This document shows, in pieces, positions 2-13,424 of a DNA stretch of 13,883 nucleotides. The number at the start of each line of letters is the position of its first letter. Within the stretch, counting starts at the first letter, position 1. The position numbers were made by a program, and so were the translations under genes. The notes under the pieces were generated by a model. That model worked only from the letters and a program-made list of their open reading frames with translations, searched no databases and was not told the DNA's origin. This DNA is from a virus, in the UHGV virus genome UHGV-0131300, one strand, 5' to 3'.

Positions 2-121
2 TTCAACCGCGAGTCGAACACTCTTGCGTCGAAATCTATCAATGCCGAAGTGACAAACTCCGCGATTGAGCTGAAAGTGTTGATTGAGCAGATGCGCGAG
101 CAGATTCAGAATATCGAATAA
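2..121 (+). CDS. 3' end of a chromosomal gene (C-terminus ...LKVLIEQMREQIQNIE*); possibly yicC, by inference from the dinD-like right flank
   Basis: Open frame 2 from the window edge to TAA at 119..121, followed by an intrinsic terminator. The yicC identity is inferred from my recollection of E. coli K-12 gene order, not recognised from the sequence. Confidence 0.5.
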   Translation, partial: FNRESNTLASKSINAEVTNSAIELKVLIEQMREQIQNIE

Positions 122-185: not shown

Positions 186-228
186 TTATCATGAGCTATC
201 ATAACGACGCAATAAAGCGCACAATATG

Positions 229-281
229 CGTGTACATAGAGGTGTACATAATGACTTTCATGTACATTGCTTTATGTACAC
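229..281. promoter_or_regulatory. Cluster of four TGTACA palindromic repeats (integrase arm-type or autoregulatory sites) overlapping the int promoter
   Basis: TGTACA at 231..236, 243..248, 261..266 and 275..280, directly upstream of the int start at 310. A CATAAT -10-like hexamer sits at 247..252. Confidence 0.5.
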
Positions 282-309
282 ACCCATATTCGATATTCAG
301 GTATTCGCA

Positions 310-1569
310 ATGCCAAAACTCACAGATATGCAGATCCGCGCATGGATAAAGGCGGGAGACAGATTTGATGGCAAGGCAGACGGCAACGGCCTTTATATTT
401 GCTACCCCAAAAACTACACAGCCCCGTTCTGGCGATTCCGCTATAAGCTCGCAGGAAAGCAGCGGGCTATGGTTATAGGCTCTTACTCCGAACTGTCACT
501 ATCAAAAGCCAGAGAAACAGCAAAAGAGCTGTCAGCCAGAGTTGCTCTTGGCTATGACGTAGCAGCAGAGAAACAGGAACGAAAAGCTGAAGCACTGGCA
601 AAAATGGAGGCTGAGAAAAACGCCATGCGTGTTTCAGATCTGGCCTCCGAATACTTCGAGCGCCAGATACTTCCGAGATGGAAACATCCCGATATCCTTC
701 GCCGGAGAATTGATAAGGATATTAACCCCTGCATTGGGCATATGAAGGTAGAGGACGTTAAGCCACGCCACATTGACGACATGTTGAAAGGTATCGTTGA
801 CCGAGGAGCACCAACGATAGCAACAGATGTATTACGCTGGACACGCCGTATCTTTGACTACGGGATAAAACGCCACGCTCTGGAGATAAACCCTTGTTCA
901 GCGTTTGAAGTATCTGATGCTGGTGGTAAAGAGGTTTCCCGCGACCGTTGGCTAACTCGCGATGAGCTTATCAGGCTATTCGAGGCTATGCGCACCGCAA
1001 AAGGATTCAGCCGCCAGAACGAACTGACATTTAAGCTATTGCTGGCACTATGCGTTCGTAAGATGGAGTTATGCGCCGCACGATGGGAAGAGTTTGATTT
1101 AGATGGTGCGGTATGGCATTTGCCGGAAGAACGCAGCAAAAACGGAGACCCTATTGATATACCTCTACCTTCCCCAGCCGTTGAATGGTTGAGAGAGCTA
1201 CACACCTTTTCATGTAATAGCGCATGGGTGCTTCCAGCCAGGAAGATGCAAAACAGAATGATCCCACATATTCAGGAAAGCACTTTGCCCGTAGCACTGG
1301 CTAAGGTTCGCGCCGAAATGCCGGATGTGCCTAATTTCACGATTCACGACTTCCGACGCACCGCACGTACTCATTTAGCAGCGTTGGGTGTTGATCCTGT
1401 CGTGGCGGAACGATGCCTCAATCATCGCATTAAGGGCGTAGAGGGGATTTATAACCGCCATCAGTATTTTGATGAGCGTAAAGCAGCACTGGCACAGTGG
1501 GCTGATCTGCTGGTGGCACTGGAAAGCGGAAAAGACTACAACGTAACGCCTCTCAGAAGGGCGAACTAA
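310..1569 (+). CDS. int: Tyrosine site-specific integrase, P4-like family
   Basis: N-terminal arm-binding-like region (LTDMQIRAW...GLYICYPKNYTAPFWRFRYKLAGKQRAMVIGSY). C-terminal catalytic motifs HDFRRTARTHL (HxxR) and LNHRIKGVEGIYNRHQY (catalytic Tyr). Start moved to ATG 310 in the 226..1569 frame, because the first 28 codons overlap the repeat/promoter region. Confidence 0.9.
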   Translation: MPKLTDMQIRAWIKAGDRFDGKADGNGLYICYPKNYTAPFWRFRYKLAGKQRAMVIGSYSELSLSKARETAKELSARVALGYDVAAEKQERKAEALAKMEAEKNAMRVSDLASEYFERQILPRWKHPDILRRRIDKDINPCIGHMKVEDVKPRHIDDMLKGIVDRGAPTIATDVLRWTRRIFDYGIKRHALEINPCSAFEVSDAGGKEVSRDRWLTRDELIRLFEAMRTAKGFSRQNELTFKLLLALCVRKMELCAARWEEFDLDGAVWHLPEERSKNGDPIDIPLPSPAVEWLRELHTFSCNSAWVLPARKMQNRMIPHIQESTLPVALAKVRAEMPDVPNFTIHDFRRTARTHLAALGVDPVVAERCLNHRIKGVEGIYNRHQYFDERKAALAQWADLLVALESGKDYNVTPLRRAN

Positions 1570-2744: not shown

Positions 2745-2948
2745 ATGAACACCGACACTATTCCTACAAAAGGCTATATCAGACGCTTCCGCCTGGCTGA
2801 ATTGCTGGGCGTTAGTGTATCCACCATCGACCGTAAAGTAAGAAACGGTTCACTACCACGTCCGGTAAAGCTGGGAGAAAAAATAACTGCGTTTGATGCG
2901 GTTGAGATTCACAACTGGCTGGCAGAACGCCGCGGGAAGGTGGCCTGA
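2745..2948 (+). CDS. alpA: AlpA-family DNA-binding regulator / excisionase-like protein
   Basis: 67 aa with the pattern FRLAELLGVSVSTIDRKVRNGSLPRPVKLGEKITAFDAVEIHNWL, typical of AlpA/Xis HTH proteins; sits immediately after the int module. Confidence 0.8.
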   Translation: MNTDTIPTKGYIRRFRLAELLGVSVSTIDRKVRNGSLPRPVKLGEKITAFDAVEIHNWLAERRGKVA

Positions 2949-5028: not shown

Positions 5029-5217
5029 ATGGCTACTACCCCTACCCAAAATCCACAATTTATCTGGTTAATCGCAGCCGTTCGCCGCGACATGCCGACA
5101 ATTACCGCCAAAATCCATCATGTTGCTGCCGAAAGCGAGCGCGAAGCACGTCAAACTCTGGCACGAGATCACGTCTGTTTCTTTGCAGGCCGCATCCGTC
5201 TGGAGGTGGCAGCATGA
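5029..5217 (+). CDS. Small protein (62 aa), first gene of the replication operon; possibly Icd-like
   Basis: Strong SD aaggagg (5014..5020) 8 nt before ATG 5029. The upstream part of the 4339..5217 frame crosses a terminator and is rejected. The Icd-like family assignment is low confidence. Confidence 0.65.
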   Translation: MATTPTQNPQFIWLIAAVRRDMPTITAKIHHVAAESEREARQTLARDHVCFFAGRIRLEVAA

Positions 5218-6437: not shown

Positions 6438-6779
6438 ATGATTACCAAAAACTTCCGACTGAATGCGCTGGCGAACCAGTACGCGGCGGCACTTTACAAC
6501 CACATCACGGCTATCAATGGTGGCAATTACTTCATGGTTGACGCGGCAGGCCAGCAAATCCGTGTGGAACTGGTGGGCGGTATCAGTGGCACGCGCCAAC
6601 TTATTGATGGTTACGCGCTCGAAGCACTCAAAGAGACATACCCTCAGTGGGAAAGCATCGGGATCACCATGCTGGAGAAATGCGTCAATGCTGGTGGCCT
6701 GACTGATACCGGGCGCGAGATATGGCAAAGCATGATTAATGATATGGGCGCGACCGTGGCAGGAGGCAACCATGCGTAA
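6438..6779 (+). CDS. Hypothetical protein (113 aa)
   Basis: gaggggg SD; its stop overlaps the primase start (ATGcgTAA). Confidence 0.6.
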   Translation: MITKNFRLNALANQYAAALYNHITAINGGNYFMVDAAGQQIRVELVGGISGTRQLIDGYALEALKETYPQWESIGITMLEKCVNAGGLTDTGREIWQSMINDMGATVAGGNHA

Positions 6780-9213
6780 TATCGACCTTATCCGCGAAGT
6801 GACCAGCGCCGCAGCAGGGCGCTGGCCTTATGTGCTGGCTGGCCTGTCTATCGACGTGCCTGATTCATCACGCCGTCATGCCCCCTGCCCTGCATGTGGC
6901 GGTACGGATCGCTTCCGGTTCGACGACAACGGTCGCGGTAGCTTTATCTGTAACCAATGCGGCGCGGGCGACGGCTTAGACCTGATTAAGAAGGTGAACA
7001 ACTGCGACACCACAGAGGCGGCACAGCTTGCCGCTGATGTGCTGGGTATTGATTACCGGGCAGCGCAAACCGACCCGGCGGCAGCGAGCCAGAGAAGGGA
7101 GCAACTGGAAGCTGACCGCCAGCAGCGTGAGCAGGAGCGCCAGCAACAGGCAGCAGATGACGCAGAGCAGCGAAGGGCTACGTTTGCCCATCTGTATGCC
7201 GGAATGCGCCAGAGTGCCACACAGGGCGAATCTGATTACCTGCAATCAAAAGGGCTGACCGGGTTTAACTATCCGGTTATGCCGGATGGTTCGTTATTGC
7301 TGGAGCTGGTGGACGAATCCGGCGCAGTGGCAGCAGCGCAAACCATTACACCGCAGGGAGAGAAGCGACTCCTGACAGGTTCAGCAAAGCGCGGGGCATA
7401 TCACGCCGTAAACGCGCCAGAATCGCCGCAGAGCGTTTTAATTGCCGAGGGGCTGGCGACGGCCCTTTCAGTTCACCTGATGCGCCCGGACGCGCTGGCA
7501 GTGGCAGCAATTGACGCGGGCAACCTGCTACCCGTTGCCGAAGTGATGCGCCGGATATATCCAGCCACGCAGATTATCATTGCCGCAGATAACGACCACC
7601 AGCAGGACGAACAGGCGAACACGGGCAAAGATGCCGCAGAGAAAGCCGCCTTATCCGTGGCTGGCTGGGTGGCACTGCCGCCGACAGACTACAAAGCCGA
7701 CTGGGACGACTACCGCCAGCAAAACGGGCTGGAAGTCGCTACGGCTGCGTTTAACGATTCGATGTACCAGATTCAAGGGGAAGCCGTGAAACCGCGATTG
7801 CAAGCCATTGAGGGCGGTAAATCCCGCCGTAAAGCCGATGTCGGAGATATTGCACAAATGGCAGCCAGCCAGAAAGCGCGGTTGCTTTCATCTCGATGGG
7901 ATATGTTGGCGGTTAACCCTGATAGTGGCACTGTTTACTGCTACGAATCTGGCGTATGGGTGAAGCTACCAGACAGCGAATTAGAAAGGGTTATGGTGGC
8001 AATTTTCGACGAGCACGAAGCCCACTACACCGAAAAGGGGATTAAATCGGTTGTCGCAACCATGAAGCTGCAAATACCGGTAATTGGTGAGCGGAGCGGG
8101 GATCTGATTGGTTTTGATAACGGCGTTTATGACCTCGCTACGCAGACGTTTTCCGCCCATTCGCCGGGTAACTGGCTGATGAACCACAATGGGATCACCT
8201 ACACCCCGCCAGCGCCGGGGGAAAATATTACCACCAGCGCCCCCAATTTTACCCGTTGGCTGAATCATGCAACGGCTGGCGACCATCATAAGGCCGAGCG
8301 TATCAAAGCAGCCTTGTTTATGGTGCTGGCGAAGCGTCACGACTGGCAGCTATTCATTGAGATAACTGGCGAGGGCGGTAGTGGGAAATCCGTATTCAGC
8401 AGCATAGCAACCACGCTGGCAGGTGAACACAACACCGCCAGCGGTAGCATGATGACGCTGGACACCGCACGGGGACGGGCGCAGTTCGTAGGAAAAAGCC
8501 TGATTATTATGCCTGACCAGACCCGCTATGTTGGAGAGGGTGCGGGGATTAAAGCCATTACGGGCGGCGATCCGGTAGAGATTGATGGGAAATATGAAAA
8601 GCAGTTCACAACCGTGATAAATGCCGTTGTTATGGCAACCAATAACGAGCCGATGACATTCACGGAGCGAAACGGGGGCATTGCCCGCCGCCGCGTGATA
8701 TTCCCGTTTAATAACCCGGTATCAGACGCAGACAAAGACCCGGATTTAACCGCAAAAATCAGGCGAGAAATCCCGGTGATTATCCGCCACCTGCTAACCA
8801 CCTTTGCCGACCAGAACAAAGCAAAGTCACTATTACTTGAGCAGCGCGATTCTCAGGAGGCGCTAGACGTTAAACGCGGCACAGATCCGGTTATCGATAT
8901 GTGTGCGGCACTTTTTTTCATGAACGAACCCAAAGGCATGATGATGGGCGGAGGTACATGGGCAGGCCAGCCAGAGCCTAGGACGTATCTTTATCATCTT
9001 TATCTGGCGTTTATGGAGTATCACGGTTTGGGTAAACCGCTTTCCGTCAATAAGTTTTCACGCGCCATAAAATCAGCAGCAAAAGAGTACCGAGCCAGCT
9101 ACCTGACGAGAAGCATTAACGGCAGAGCGCAAACCAACGTTGGCTATAACGAGAAGGCTGAGGAGTTCATGCCACGCGCTTACGGTGTGGAGAGCGGGCA
9201 GAGTGATGATTGA
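6772..9213 (+). CDS. DNA primase-helicase, P4 alpha-like (zinc finger, TOPRIM-like region, D5-type NTPase)
   Basis: Zinc finger CPACGG...CNQCG near the N-terminus; acidic IIIAADNDHQQDE segment; Walker A ITGEGGSGKSVF; Walker B-like SLIIMPDQ. AGGAGG SD at 6761..6766 favours ATG 6772 over the track start at 6739. Confidence 0.9.
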   Translation: MRNIDLIREVTSAAAGRWPYVLAGLSIDVPDSSRRHAPCPACGGTDRFRFDDNGRGSFICNQCGAGDGLDLIKKVNNCDTTEAAQLAADVLGIDYRAAQTDPAAASQRREQLEADRQQREQERQQQAADDAEQRRATFAHLYAGMRQSATQGESDYLQSKGLTGFNYPVMPDGSLLLELVDESGAVAAAQTITPQGEKRLLTGSAKRGAYHAVNAPESPQSVLIAEGLATALSVHLMRPDALAVAAIDAGNLLPVAEVMRRIYPATQIIIAADNDHQQDEQANTGKDAAEKAALSVAGWVALPPTDYKADWDDYRQQNGLEVATAAFNDSMYQIQGEAVKPRLQAIEGGKSRRKADVGDIAQMAASQKARLLSSRWDMLAVNPDSGTVYCYESGVWVKLPDSELERVMVAIFDEHEAHYTEKGIKSVVATMKLQIPVIGERSGDLIGFDNGVYDLATQTFSAHSPGNWLMNHNGITYTPPAPGENITTSAPNFTRWLNHATAGDHHKAERIKAALFMVLAKRHDWQLFIEITGEGGSGKSVFSSIATTLAGEHNTASGSMMTLDTARGRAQFVGKSLIIMPDQTRYVGEGAGIKAITGGDPVEIDGKYEKQFTTVINAVVMATNNEPMTFTERNGGIARRRVIFPFNNPVSDADKDPDLTAKIRREIPVIIRHLLTTFADQNKAKSLLLEQRDSQEALDVKRGTDPVIDMCAALFFMNEPKGMMMGGGTWAGQPEPRTYLYHLYLAFMEYHGLGKPLSVNKFSRAIKSAAKEYRASYLTRSINGRAQTNVGYNEKAEEFMPRAYGVESGQSDD

Positions 9214-9232
9214 AACTTTTACGGCGGCACTT

Positions 9233-9478
9233 ATCCCTACTGCCCTACTAAAAACGAGACGAGGCCAGACGTAGCAAGGCTTTAAACTAGGTAGGGATAT
9301 ATATTTTTATCCCTACTTATCCCTACATATCCCTACCAAATAAAACAGGCAGTAAAATGCCGTTGAAGTGATTTAGTAGGGATAAGTAGGGTTATGTAGG
9401 GCAACAAAATTGAATGCCTACCAGTCTGAAAGCCTTGCCATTCGTGGCCTGAGCCAGTTAGTAGGGATTGGTAGGGAT
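9233..9478. repeat. Iteron array (putative replication origin): about 10 copies of GTAGGGAT / ATCCCTAC at 10-bp phasing around an AT-rich spacer
   Basis: atccctac at 9233..9240, 9309..9316, 9319..9326, 9329..9336. gtagggat-type copies at 9291..9298, 9376..9383, 9386..9393, 9396..9403, 9461..9468, 9471..9478. Lies immediately downstream of the primase gene. Confidence 0.75.
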
Positions 9479-9530
9479 ATTACACCCCCAAAAAGATTCT
9501 ATGGGGGGTAGCTTAAAACGAAGGTGGGCA

Positions 9531-9833
9531 ATGAATACAGAAACCAGCCAGAAAATGACCTATCAGGAGCGTGAAGCATTGAAGGGGTTTACTGACAAAC
9601 GCGCATTACAGGGCGACACCCAAAGCCTGCAAATGACCTTGAGGATGATCGCCCACTGGATGAGGCAGCCAGCAGAAATTGGATTTACAGAATATGCAAC
9701 ACACTGGACGGCGGCACAGGCCGGACGTGATGACGGGAATCACTCGACCGCAGCAATGGCGGAGCAGTGGCCTTTAAGGGAAGAAATGAAAATTAGCCCC
9801 GGAGGTAGTGACTACATGAGGAAATATCTATGA
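9531..9833 (+). CDS. Hypothetical protein (100 aa)
   Basis: Start chosen at ATG 9531 (aagg SD) rather than the track start at 9468, which lies in the iteron/hairpin region. Stop overlaps the next start. Confidence 0.5.
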   Translation: MNTETSQKMTYQEREALKGFTDKRALQGDTQSLQMTLRMIAHWMRQPAEIGFTEYATHWTAAQAGRDDGNHSTAAMAEQWPLREEMKISPGGSDYMRKYL

Positions 9834-10264
9834 CAGCACAAATTTCAGCATACGGGCGGCTGGTGGCAGATCCCCAGACCCGCACCACAACGAACGGTAA
9901 CAACATGGCTATGGCGCGGCTGGCGGTGTCTCTCCCCTGTAATGCGGCAGAGGCGGGAGAGTCAACCTTCTGGCTGGGCGTTATTGCTTTTGGGAAGCAG
10001 GCCGATGCGCTGGCGAAGCACCAGAAAGGCGACCTTGTGAGCGTGGCAGGCAATATGCAACTCAACCAGTGGACAGGGCAGGACGGCGGTACACAGCAGG
10101 GGTATCAGGTAGTAGCCGACAGTGTGATCAGCGCCAGAACGGTACGCCCCGGCGGGAAGGCAGGACAGCGGGGACAGGCAACGGACGCGCTGAGACGTGC
10201 GCAGCAGCCATCCCGTGATGAATACGACCAACGCCCACCATTCGACGATGAAACGCCATTCTGA
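9830..10264 (+). CDS. Single-stranded DNA-binding protein-like (OB fold with SSB-type acidic C-terminal tip)
   Basis: N-terminal region is alignable with bacterial SSB (GRLVADPQTRTTTNGNNMAMARLAV...FWLGVIAFGKQADALAKHQKGDLVSVAGNMQLNQWTGQDG). A Gly/Gln-rich linker ends in PPFDDETPF, compared with DFDDDIPF in E. coli SSB. Confidence 0.8.
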   Translation: MTAQISAYGRLVADPQTRTTTNGNNMAMARLAVSLPCNAAEAGESTFWLGVIAFGKQADALAKHQKGDLVSVAGNMQLNQWTGQDGGTQQGYQVVADSVISARTVRPGGKAGQRGQATDALRRAQQPSRDEYDQRPPFDDETPF

Positions 10265-12529: not shown

Positions 12530-13072
12530 ATGTACCAGCTAAAGATAACCATCCGAGACAGCAAACCACCTATATGGCGGCGTGTGCTGGTTCCAGAGCA
12601 AATCCCCTTTAGTAAACTTCATGCCGTGATCCAGTTGGCTTTTGGCTGGAATGACGAACACCTGTATATGTTCGAGAAAGGGCGTAAAGGTGATCCCGGT
12701 AGCGAGTATCGCGTATGGGGTGAGGATGAAAGCATGGGTAATGCGGCAATCACACCACTATGGGCAGCGCTCCAGAATGATGGTGACAAGCTGGTTTACA
12801 CGTATGACTTTGGCGACTGGTGGGATTGCGTCATTGTGCTGGAGAAGCAAACACACGATACGAGCAATCAGCCCATTAGCTGCCTGCGTGGGAAAGGCAC
12901 CACCCCGGTGGAAAACTCAGGCGGCTTGCATGGTTACAATGAATTGCTATTACAGGCCAGAGAGTCTGATAATCCTGAGCAGGCCGAGATCCACAATTTC
13001 CTGATGCTGGATATTGAGCGCCGGGTTTACGACCTGAGCAGCATCAACGACAGATTGCAGGCTCTTAACTGA
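12530..13072 (+). CDS. pRiA4b ORF-3-like domain protein (180 aa)
   Basis: N-terminus MYQLKITIRDSKPPIWRRVLVPEQIPFSKLHAVIQLAFGWNDEHLYMF matches the characteristic start of the plasmid pRiA4b ORF-3-like family. Start moved from track GTG 12482 to ATG 12530, which has an agga SD. Confidence 0.65.
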   Translation: MYQLKITIRDSKPPIWRRVLVPEQIPFSKLHAVIQLAFGWNDEHLYMFEKGRKGDPGSEYRVWGEDESMGNAAITPLWAALQNDGDKLVYTYDFGDWWDCVIVLEKQTHDTSNQPISCLRGKGTTPVENSGGLHGYNELLLQARESDNPEQAEIHNFLMLDIERRVYDLSSINDRLQALN

Positions 13073-13424
13073 CCCGCATATATTCGCCTGATATTGCGTT
13101 ATCAGCGCCGCCAGTATCGCGCATAACAGCGCACTGACCGGGCAAACCGTAGCGCACGACCGTTGCGTTAGTCTCACCGCCGCGCCGTATCTGGCGCGAT
13201 TCATACACTGTCACCCGCTCAAGCAGTCCACCAGCAACCATGCTTTCCAGTGTGCGCCGGGTTGATTCGATCTGGTGGCGCTTATCGAACGACACCATGC
13301 CATGAAGCAGGTAGGCCACACCCGACACATCGAACGGCGGCGCACCAATCTCACCAGTCACCCATTCGAGGTTATCCGGTTCAAAGTAGCTAAGTATCTC
13401 TTTTTTGCGGCTGGTCATTCTCAT
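13065..13424 (-). CDS. Hypothetical protein (119 aa), convergent with and overlapping the 3' end of the preceding gene
   Basis: Minus-strand ORF MRMTSRKKEILSYFEPDNLEW...; its 3' end overlaps 12530..13072 by 8 bp. Last gene inside the element before the right-end repeats. Confidence 0.55.
   Translation of the reverse strand: MRMTSRKKEILSYFEPDNLEWVTGEIGAPPFDVSGVAYLLHGMVSFDKRHQIESTRRTLESMVAGGLLERVTVYESRQIRRGGETNATVVRYGLPGQCAVMRDTGGADNAISGEYMRVS

Follow-up and report, generated by a model that had tools for sequence, protein, structure and literature searches.

Introduction

What purpose is served by the short repeats that directly follow the primase-helicase gene in the virus genome UHGV-0131300? 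The DNA analysed is a stretch of 13,883 bp, called the window in the following, and all coordinates are positions in it. The repeats occupy 9233-9478, inside a gap of 317 bp after the gene of a P4-alpha-type primase-helicase (Pri-Rep). A preliminary description, made from the sequence alone, took them for a probable iteron origin recognized by the adjacent primase-helicase. This view is supported by the position of the array 3' of pri-rep, by the covariation of the repeated word with the protein, and by a counterpart in the island EcCICFT073, among other evidence. From these comparisons, 9212-9508 is very probably the replication origin of a Gram-negative island of the phage-inducible chromosomal island (PICI) type, with sites bound by the C-terminal domain of Pri-Rep. 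The kind of origin is already known, and only its 8-base word appears to be new.

Results

Twelve iteron sites form one palindromic array

The word GTAGGGAT occurs in eight exact copies in the window, and all eight lie within 9233-9478. With up to one mismatch it has 16 matches in the window, compared to 7.0 +/- 2.8 in dinucleotide-preserving shuffles, none of which reached 16. A scan of the whole window for the 6-base core GTAGGG returned 11 copies in the array and one outside it (at 5040). Together with one degenerate copy, the 11 cores make up 12 sites with the 8-bp consensus GTAGGGAT(A). For comparison, one-genome-per-species contigs and viral contigs were scanned with primase alignments, which gave 79 further loci (numbered with an L below), and the region 3' of each primase stop codon was inspected. 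The sites in the window are:

9233-9240 and 9241-9248, minus strand: iteron sites 1 and 2 (GTAGGGAT, GTAGGGCA), 8 bp apart, kept in 10 distinct arrays
9291-9298, plus strand: iteron site 3 (GTAGGGAT), from the word search and the arrays of relatives
9309-9336 (starts 9309, 9319, 9329), minus strand: iteron sites 4-6 (three GTAGGGAT), 10-bp period
9376-9403 (starts 9376, 9386, 9396), plus strand: iteron sites 7-9 (GTAGGGAT, GTAGGGTT, GTAGGGCA), 10-bp period
9414-9421, minus strand: degenerate iteron site 10 (GTAGGCAT), paired with site 3 in the mirror symmetry
9461-9478 (starts 9461, 9471), plus strand: iteron sites 11 and 12, both GTAGGGAT, at a distance of 10 bp

From left to right the site orientations are --+---+++-++, and the centre-to-centre distances are 8, 50, 18, 10, 10, 47, 10, 10, 18, 47 and 10 bp. 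The equivalent of site 10 is a full GTAGGG in four relatives (L003, L007, L019 and L027). About ten copies of an 8-mer, in both orientations and mostly spaced 10 bp apart, had been described initially. The repeats are indeed present, their number is 12, and the 10-bp phasing holds within clusters of sites. What had been overlooked is that the sites form a palindrome rather than a loose set.

This palindrome is imperfect, roughly 290 bp long and mirror-symmetric about 9356. Each six-site arm consists of two sites, one inverted site and then three sites, and in the left arm an A/T tract lies between sites 3 and 4. The left arm is 81.5% identical to the reverse complement of the right arm over 130 aligned bases (score 50.5, against 6.2 +/- 2.7 in shuffles), and a repeat finder reported 80-nt arms that are 73% complementary. 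As single-stranded DNA, the 317-bp gap folds into a single long hairpin (-64.5 kcal/mol, z = -8.2). Neither DnaA boxes (up to one mismatch) nor the IHF consensus were found in the array, which fits a self-contained initiator. GTGAAC and GTTCAC are likewise absent from it.

Pri-Rep is a P4-alpha-type primase-helicase

The protein encoded directly upstream of the array was described by the following features:

6772-9213, plus strand: Pri-Rep primase-helicase gene, stop codon 9211-9213; the open reading frame (ORF) is open from an ATG at 6739, RefSeq and homologues start at 6772
8881-9159, plus strand: codons of residues 715-807, which form the C-terminal winged-helix origin-binding domain, phmmer match to PDB entry 1KA8 (P4 alpha origin-binding domain), E = 3e-8
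9043-9141, plus strand: predicted recognition helix and wing, residues 769-801, from model secondary structure and 1KA8 homology

The ORF from the ATG at 6739 overlaps the upstream gene and has 824 amino acids. Because RefSeq and all homologues begin at 6772 (MRNIDL...), Pri-Rep is probably 813 amino acids long. Its Pfam domains are Zn_Ribbon_Prim, Toprim_3, D5_N, DUF5906 and Pox_D5 (a superfamily 3, SF3, helicase). It belongs to PHROG 2249, DNA primase (E = 2e-149), and its RefSeq label is 'phage/plasmid primase, P4 family'. A first blastn search against phages returned almost nothing. P4 was reached by a search at the protein level, in which P4 alpha is the best phage match (38.7% identity over 97% of the query). 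The gene next to the array had thus been named correctly as a primase-helicase, and it is of the P4 alpha type. The helicase core also matches the structure of the PriRep protein of the Staphylococcus aureus pathogenicity island (SaPI) SaPI5 (7OLA, E = 4e-11).

The predicted structure of the last 125 residues has a confidence score (pLDDT) of 54, which is too low for a fold search, and only its secondary structure was used. In this model residues 769-801 are predicted to form the third helix and the following beta-hairpin, i.e., the usual recognition helix and wing. The fold of 1KA8 has been described (PMC2777425).

The iteron word covaries with the binding domain

Across the loci compared, the iteron word tracks the C-terminal binding domain of the adjacent protein and not the rest of the protein. 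It is mainly because of this covariation that the adjacent protein is taken to read the repeats. Relatives that are 60-67% identical to Pri-Rep overall, but 33-36% in the binding domain, have TGTTCAC arrays at the same position. Between the window and the Tatumella locus L010, for example, the primase is 64%, the helicase 81% and the binding domain 35% identical, with TGTTCAC instead of GTAGGG as the word of L010. Conversely, L008 and L010 share the same word and are 87% identical in the binding domain, with 59-68% identity in primase and helicase. The binding domains of these two loci resemble that of P4 (44-49%) more than that of the window. All 14 loci with the helix-3/wing sequence SVNKFSRAIKS..EYRA.Y.TR.INGRAQTNV carry GTAGGG arrays, and loci with SVEKFSRAMK... 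carry GTAGAC/GTAGAG arrays.

The sharpest case is the pair L027 and L028, in which the helicase domains are 98.7% identical and the iteron words differ. Among the 33 amino-acid differences between them, 12 fall into residues 769-801 and another 12 into the C-terminal tail; the helicase contributes 6, the first half of the binding domain 3 and the primase none. This pair is a natural experiment, with near-identical initiators that are associated with different words and differ mainly in 12 predicted helix and wing residues, so that a few swaps could put the recognition code of this winged-helix family to the test.

The word of the window (GTAGGGAT) differs, as had been stated initially, from the type 1 repeat of P4, which is TGTTCACC in X51522. 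A distinct specificity had been deduced from this difference, and the covariation argues for it: GTAGGG goes with binding domains of the window type, and TGTTCAC with domains that are 33-36% identical to it.

One scaffold is combined with at least eight iteron words

At least eight iteron classes show the layout --+---+++-++, and relatives with the P4 octamer TGTTCACC are among them. In each class the array was found after the primase stop codon:

GTAGGGATA: class of the window, 14 loci
GGTAGACGTA alternating with GGTAGAGG
GGTAGATAG
GGGTAGACAGT
GGGTAGGGTT
GGTAGAGG
GGTGTACAGT
GGTGAACAGT: the P4 'ori type 1 repeat' TGTTCACC (X51522 annotation)

In 10 distinct arrays of the GTAGGG class, the mean pairwise identity is 85% in iteron columns and 64% in spacer columns (Mann-Whitney p = 1e-10, which is only indicative as the sequences are related). 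A relative in E. coli with 72% overall identity has kept the sites, while its central and lateral spacers have diverged.

Arrays also vary in site number and word usage. L026, a member of the GTAGGG class, has one extra unit of exactly 10 bp (TAAGTAGGGT), hence four sites in the plus cluster and 13 sites in total; site number can therefore vary by one helical turn. In the sister class formed by the viral contigs L020-L025 and L028, GTAGAC(GTA) and GGTAGAGG alternate, approximately 30-270 nt past the primase stop, instead of one word being repeated. The viral contigs L033-L066 encode proteins of about 50% identity with P4-like binding domains, and many of them have only 3-7 copies of any 6-mer (GGTGTA, GTGCAC, GATGTA) in the 360 nt after the primase stop. 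In these loci the arrays are weaker, otherwise placed, or split like that of P4.

In several genomes the homology to the window ends just past the array and different cargo lies beyond; pri-rep and origin therefore move together as a module. In L004 (E. coli P21_SE1) homology breaks a few bases past the array (from about 3510, corresponding to about 9510 in the window). Downstream of the break, the place of the hypothetical protein and the single-stranded DNA-binding protein (SSB) of the window is taken by a peptidase M41 family protein and PerC, and the array is kept. This break represents a recombination joint at the origin's right edge.

Spacers, flanking elements and hairpin

Apart from the iterons, the region contains several further elements:

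9212-9222: flanking element on the left side, GAAACTTTTAC, which shares positions with the primase stop codon and mirrors the right flanking element (arm-to-arm alignment)
9262-9282, plus strand: conserved spacer element GGCCAG-N5-GCAAGGCTTT of the left arm, about 21 bp, non-iteron, found across iteron classes
9299-9308: A/T-only tract ATATATTTTT, 10 bp, 0% GC, between sites 3 and 4, kept in relatives
9337-9375: central spacer, 39 bp, 33% GC, dyad centre at about 9356, candidate melting region, sequence not conserved among relatives
9429-9449, minus strand: mirror copy of the spacer element (AAAGCCTTGC-N6-TGGCC on the top strand), from the arm-to-arm alignment and relatives
9485-9489 (C5) and 9503-9508 (G6), plus strand: hairpin with a 13-nt loop, paired in the single-stranded DNA fold, not terminator-like
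9490-9508, plus strand: right flanking element AAAAAGATT...GGGGGG, the conserved portion of the hairpin region

The AT-rich tract of the preliminary description exists, but the pure A/T run is limited to the 10 bp at 9299-9308, to which the central spacer adds 39 bp of 33% GC. Only one other 40-bp region of the window is less stable than 9280-9319. The C5/G6 hairpin reported after the array exists as well and pairs in the fold. Its C arm is missing in L007, L009 and L027, so that the hairpin as such is not conserved, while the A-run, T-run and G-run are kept in all classes.

The spacer element GGCCAG-N5-GCAAGGCTTT is also found in L008, L010-L012, L016, L020, L030 and L081. Loci with the P4 word and EcCICFT073 have a single copy of it, which in the P4-word loci is oriented opposite to the right-arm copy of the window. 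AAA(C/G)TTTT left of site 1 is conserved across all iteron classes. Because these non-iteron elements stay constant while the binding domain varies, they are probably read by something other than that domain.

In every class, the array is bordered on either side by the A-run/T-run AAA(C/G)TTTT followed by a G-run (in the window at 9212-9222 and 9490-9508). In some loci the G-run lies 6-10 nt ahead of the next ATG and may double as a ribosome-binding site. In P4 crr (L014, 4291-4590) a similar A-run/T-run follows each 120-bp repeat, without the G-run.

Comparison with known replication systems

The closest experimental parallel is the island EcCICFT073, which was read here from the CFT073 genome. 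Fillol-Salom et al. (2018; PMC6092414) published the architecture of a Gram-negative PICI origin and tested it in this relative: a plasmid with pri and ori was maintained at the restrictive temperature, and the versions lacking ori or pri were not. Both islands are of the same type (int, alpA, rightward genes) and have the gene order pri-rep, ori, hypothetical protein, SSB. In EcCICFT073 the array also lies directly 3' of pri-rep, in a gap of 289 bp (in the window the array ends at 9478 and the next gene starts at 9531). It has 11 copies of GGTAGA with the orientations --+---++-++ and comparable spacings, in two mirror sets that follow the 12-site layout of the window, and the binding domains are homologous (47% identity). 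The two differ in the word, which is GGTAGA(C/T)A in EcCICFT073 and GTAGGGAT in the window, and in the length of Pri-Rep, which has 584 amino acids there, whereas the window encodes the long form of 813-824 amino acids with Zn ribbon and Toprim primase domain. Moreover, the island in the window is without capsid genes. The left inter-site spacer, which is AT-rich in EcCICFT073, holds a conserved element containing GC in the window.

For P4, the features annotated in GenBank entry X51522 were used. The initiators share the domain order of DnaG-type primase, SF3 helicase and C-terminal winged helix, and both systems have 8-bp words in both orientations with a period of 10-11 bp. Each arm of the window array repeats the layout of P4 ori (three direct, one inverted, spacer, two direct), and the array is located at the position of crr, just past the alpha stop codon. 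In contrast to the shared layout, the words differ and the binding domain of the window is only 34% identical to that of P4. Furthermore, P4 has an ori and a separate crr about 4.5 kb apart, the latter made of two direct 120-bp repeats, whereas the window has a single array with inverted arms. Matches to sid, delta and psu are absent from the window, as is a match to a P2-type cos.

A sister lineage in Tatumella, Rahnella, Erwinia and Serratia (L008, L010-L012, L029) connects the window to the P4 word. Primase and helicase are 64-81% identical to those of the window, and the layout and flanking elements are the same. It differs in the binding domain (33-36% identity to the window, 44-49% to P4), in the iteron GGTGAACA, in an AT-rich left spacer, and in the spacer element, which is present once and in opposite orientation. 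Classical plasmid iteron origins are built differently, from tandem direct iterons of about 17-22 bp and DnaA boxes; the words in the window are of 8 bp in inverted sets, with no DnaA box at up to one mismatch in the array.

SaPI origins (Qiao et al., 2022; PMC9371898) contain 6-12 short iterons just downstream of rep, divided equally between the two sides of an AT-rich centre. SaPI Reps bind the iterons via a C-terminal winged helix without ATP and without a loader, and two hexamers were proposed to load flanking the AT-rich centre (PMC9371898). The window shares the iterons downstream of the initiator gene, the C-terminal winged helix and the helicase similarity to 7OLA. In contrast, SaPIs have Gram-positive hosts and iterons of 5-6 nt, and the similarity of the window protein to the SaPI protein is remote and confined to the helicase core.

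The literature search found no paper linking GTAGGGAT with 'iteron'; Fig. 2a of PMC6092414, which presents iterons of several E. coli PICIs, lies outside the part of the literature covered by that search. Searches on TGTTCACC and P4 oriII returned unrelated papers only, in a literature set that excludes the primary P4 origin papers.

Discussion

How the array would work as an origin

A mechanism can be proposed from these comparisons. On induction of the island, Pri-Rep would bind the sites through its winged-helix domain without a separate loader. One SF3 hexamer would assemble on each arm, with six binding domains on six sites and two hexamers in total, and the duplex would melt in the low-GC stretches between the arms. 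Subsequently, the two helicases would travel apart, the N-terminal DnaG-type primase domain would lay primers, and the host polymerase together with the island's own SSB would complete replication. The general picture of how such origins work is unchanged by this.

Several points weigh against this interpretation. All the evidence is comparative. The correspondence of six sites and six subunits may be numerology; L026 has 13 sites and L009 only 7 exact GTAGGG cores. With a pLDDT of 54, the confidence of the structure predicted for the binding domain is low, so that the terms recognition helix and wing rest on predicted secondary structure and 1KA8 homology. The site of melting is a guess, given that the A/T tract measures only 10 bp and that DNA less stable than the array as a whole exists elsewhere in the window. 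The two conserved non-iteron elements (the spacer element and the flanking A-run/T-run with the G-run) are left unexplained by the model. Lastly, the P4 array at the same position, crr, is auxiliary, and the annotation of P4 places initiation 4.5 kb from it, at a separate ori.

Alternative functions of the array

From this last point follows the sole rival with real weight, namely that the array binds Pri-Rep but plays an auxiliary part like P4 crr (as enhancer or in copy control or handcuffing), with initiation elsewhere. The type 1 repeats that directly follow alpha in P4 are indeed crr, with the 'origin of DNA replication' annotated 4.5 kb off, and iteron arrays of plasmids also serve copy control. 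However, the window has no second array and GTAGGG occurs only once elsewhere in it; since the array is the only one, it is probably the origin. In addition, each arm follows the 3+1+2 layout of P4 ori and not the layout of crr, and deletion of the equivalent in EcCICFT073 abolished plasmid maintenance (PMC6092414). Altogether, we consider an auxiliary role unlikely. It is more improbable still that the repeats are operators for AlpA or another island regulator, which would control the operon of the hypothetical protein and SSB or terminate pri-rep transcription. Helically phased inverted repeats are typical of operators, and the intergenic gap of 317 bp that holds the array does precede a block of genes, but scanning 9000-9900 for sigma-70-like promoters and intrinsic terminators gave none, and 12 sites in a 290-bp palindrome are unlike a promoter operator. 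Nor would an operator account for a word that covaries with the last ~80 residues of Pri-Rep and with no other gene, or for an array that is retained in L004 where the downstream genes are replaced.

We attach even less probability to a packaging signal, recognized by a small terminase subunit or a PICI redirecting protein. Satellites need a packaging site and the sites of small terminases are often phased repeats, but neither lambda cosN nor P2/P4 cos had a convincing match in the window, and neither a terminase-like gene nor a capsid gene came up in the Pfam and PHROG scans of its ORFs. Nor would a packaging role explain why the word covaries with the binding domain of Pri-Rep. The least probable candidate, to which we give hardly any credence, is a host-dependent origin in which the sites are DnaA boxes or sites of another host initiator. 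TTATCCCTA, i.e., the iteron with its flank, does match the DnaA box TTATCCACA at 7 of 9 positions, but the stricter search of the array mentioned above was negative for DnaA and IHF alike. Sister arrays of the same layout use TGTTCAC and GTAGAC, and a fixed host protein could not follow such changes. Arm-type sites of the integrase were rejected as well, given the distances of the array to int (7.7 kb) and to the left attachment site (about 9 kb) and its covariation with Pri-Rep.

Module exchange and possible orthogonality

In annotations, the 317-bp gap can carry the label of an island origin, and the whole element that of a PICI-type satellite whose Pri-Rep is long and P4-alpha-like. Beyond this annotation, the comparison adds a fixed 12-site palindromic scaffold that is shared with relatives using the P4 word, a cassette-like exchange of binding domain and origin, and a short list of candidate specificity residues. 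The codons of the binding domain adjoin the array, so that one crossover can swap both, which would give rise to many iteron dialects on one scaffold. It is tempting to speculate, although we regard it as rather doubtful, that the GTAGGGAT array is one of at least eight mutually orthogonal dialects, swapped as a cassette of about 400 bp (recognition helix and wing codons plus origin), which would let co-resident islands avoid cross-talk and incompatibility. The scaffold would in that case include a previously undescribed 21-bp spacer element (GGCCAG-N5-GCAAGGCTTT), read by a host factor or by the primase/helicase part of Pri-Rep and marking the start of priming or loading. Initiator/origin pairs that do not cross-react would be useful as orthogonal inducible replicons, and would help to explain the coexistence of satellites in one cell.

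Island context

By its gene content and its relatives, the window is a Gram-negative PICI-type chromosomal island of E. coli between yicC and dinD and not P4 itself. Besides pri-rep, its main genes are:

226-1569, plus strand: P4-type integrase (Pfam integrase domains)
2745-2948, plus strand: AlpA (PF05930)
9531-9833, plus strand: hypothetical protein (RefSeq), first gene after the array
9830-10264, plus strand: SSB (Pfam SSB, E = 6e-17; RefSeq)

Further genes encode an AntA-family protein, DUF4222, an Ash/Icd-like protein and, after SSB, a PRiA4_ORF3 protein. The annotated genes from int through PRiA4_ORF3 are all on the plus strand, and one small minus-strand ORF lies at the right end (13065-13424). 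In the Pfam and PHROG scans of the window ORFs, sid, delta and psu were not found, PADLOC reported no defence genes among the uncharacterised ORFs, and an Rfam scan of 9100-9700 returned only a chance microRNA match (E = 0.32).

Of 5426 complete E. coli genomes, 77 contain the 551 bp around the array, in each case on the chromosome. The same query matched 98 places in 78 records, and thus at most about 20 genomes have a second match. In these genomes the second match may come from a related, co-resident island and so be relevant to incompatibility between islands of one iteron class. Table S1 of PMC6092414 lists a PICI between yicC and dinD with the attachment (att) core GAGCAGATTCAA. Window positions 98-109 (GAGCAGATTCAG) match this core with one mismatch, a weak match that was reached by 17 of 200 shuffles.

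Between int and alpA, in the least stable and most AT-rich DNA of the window, lies an ORF of 321 amino acids (1665-2630) that had no match in Pfam, PHROG or PADLOC and is probably accessory cargo. In strain ECONIH4 an insertion sequence of the ISSpu7 family is inserted just after this ORF. The published PICI EcCIRM13514 (L087, E. coli RM13514), also located between yicC and dinD, has a different and shorter primase (607 amino acids) and a gap of 490 bp before SSB. The islands between yicC and dinD are therefore mosaics whose replication modules differ.

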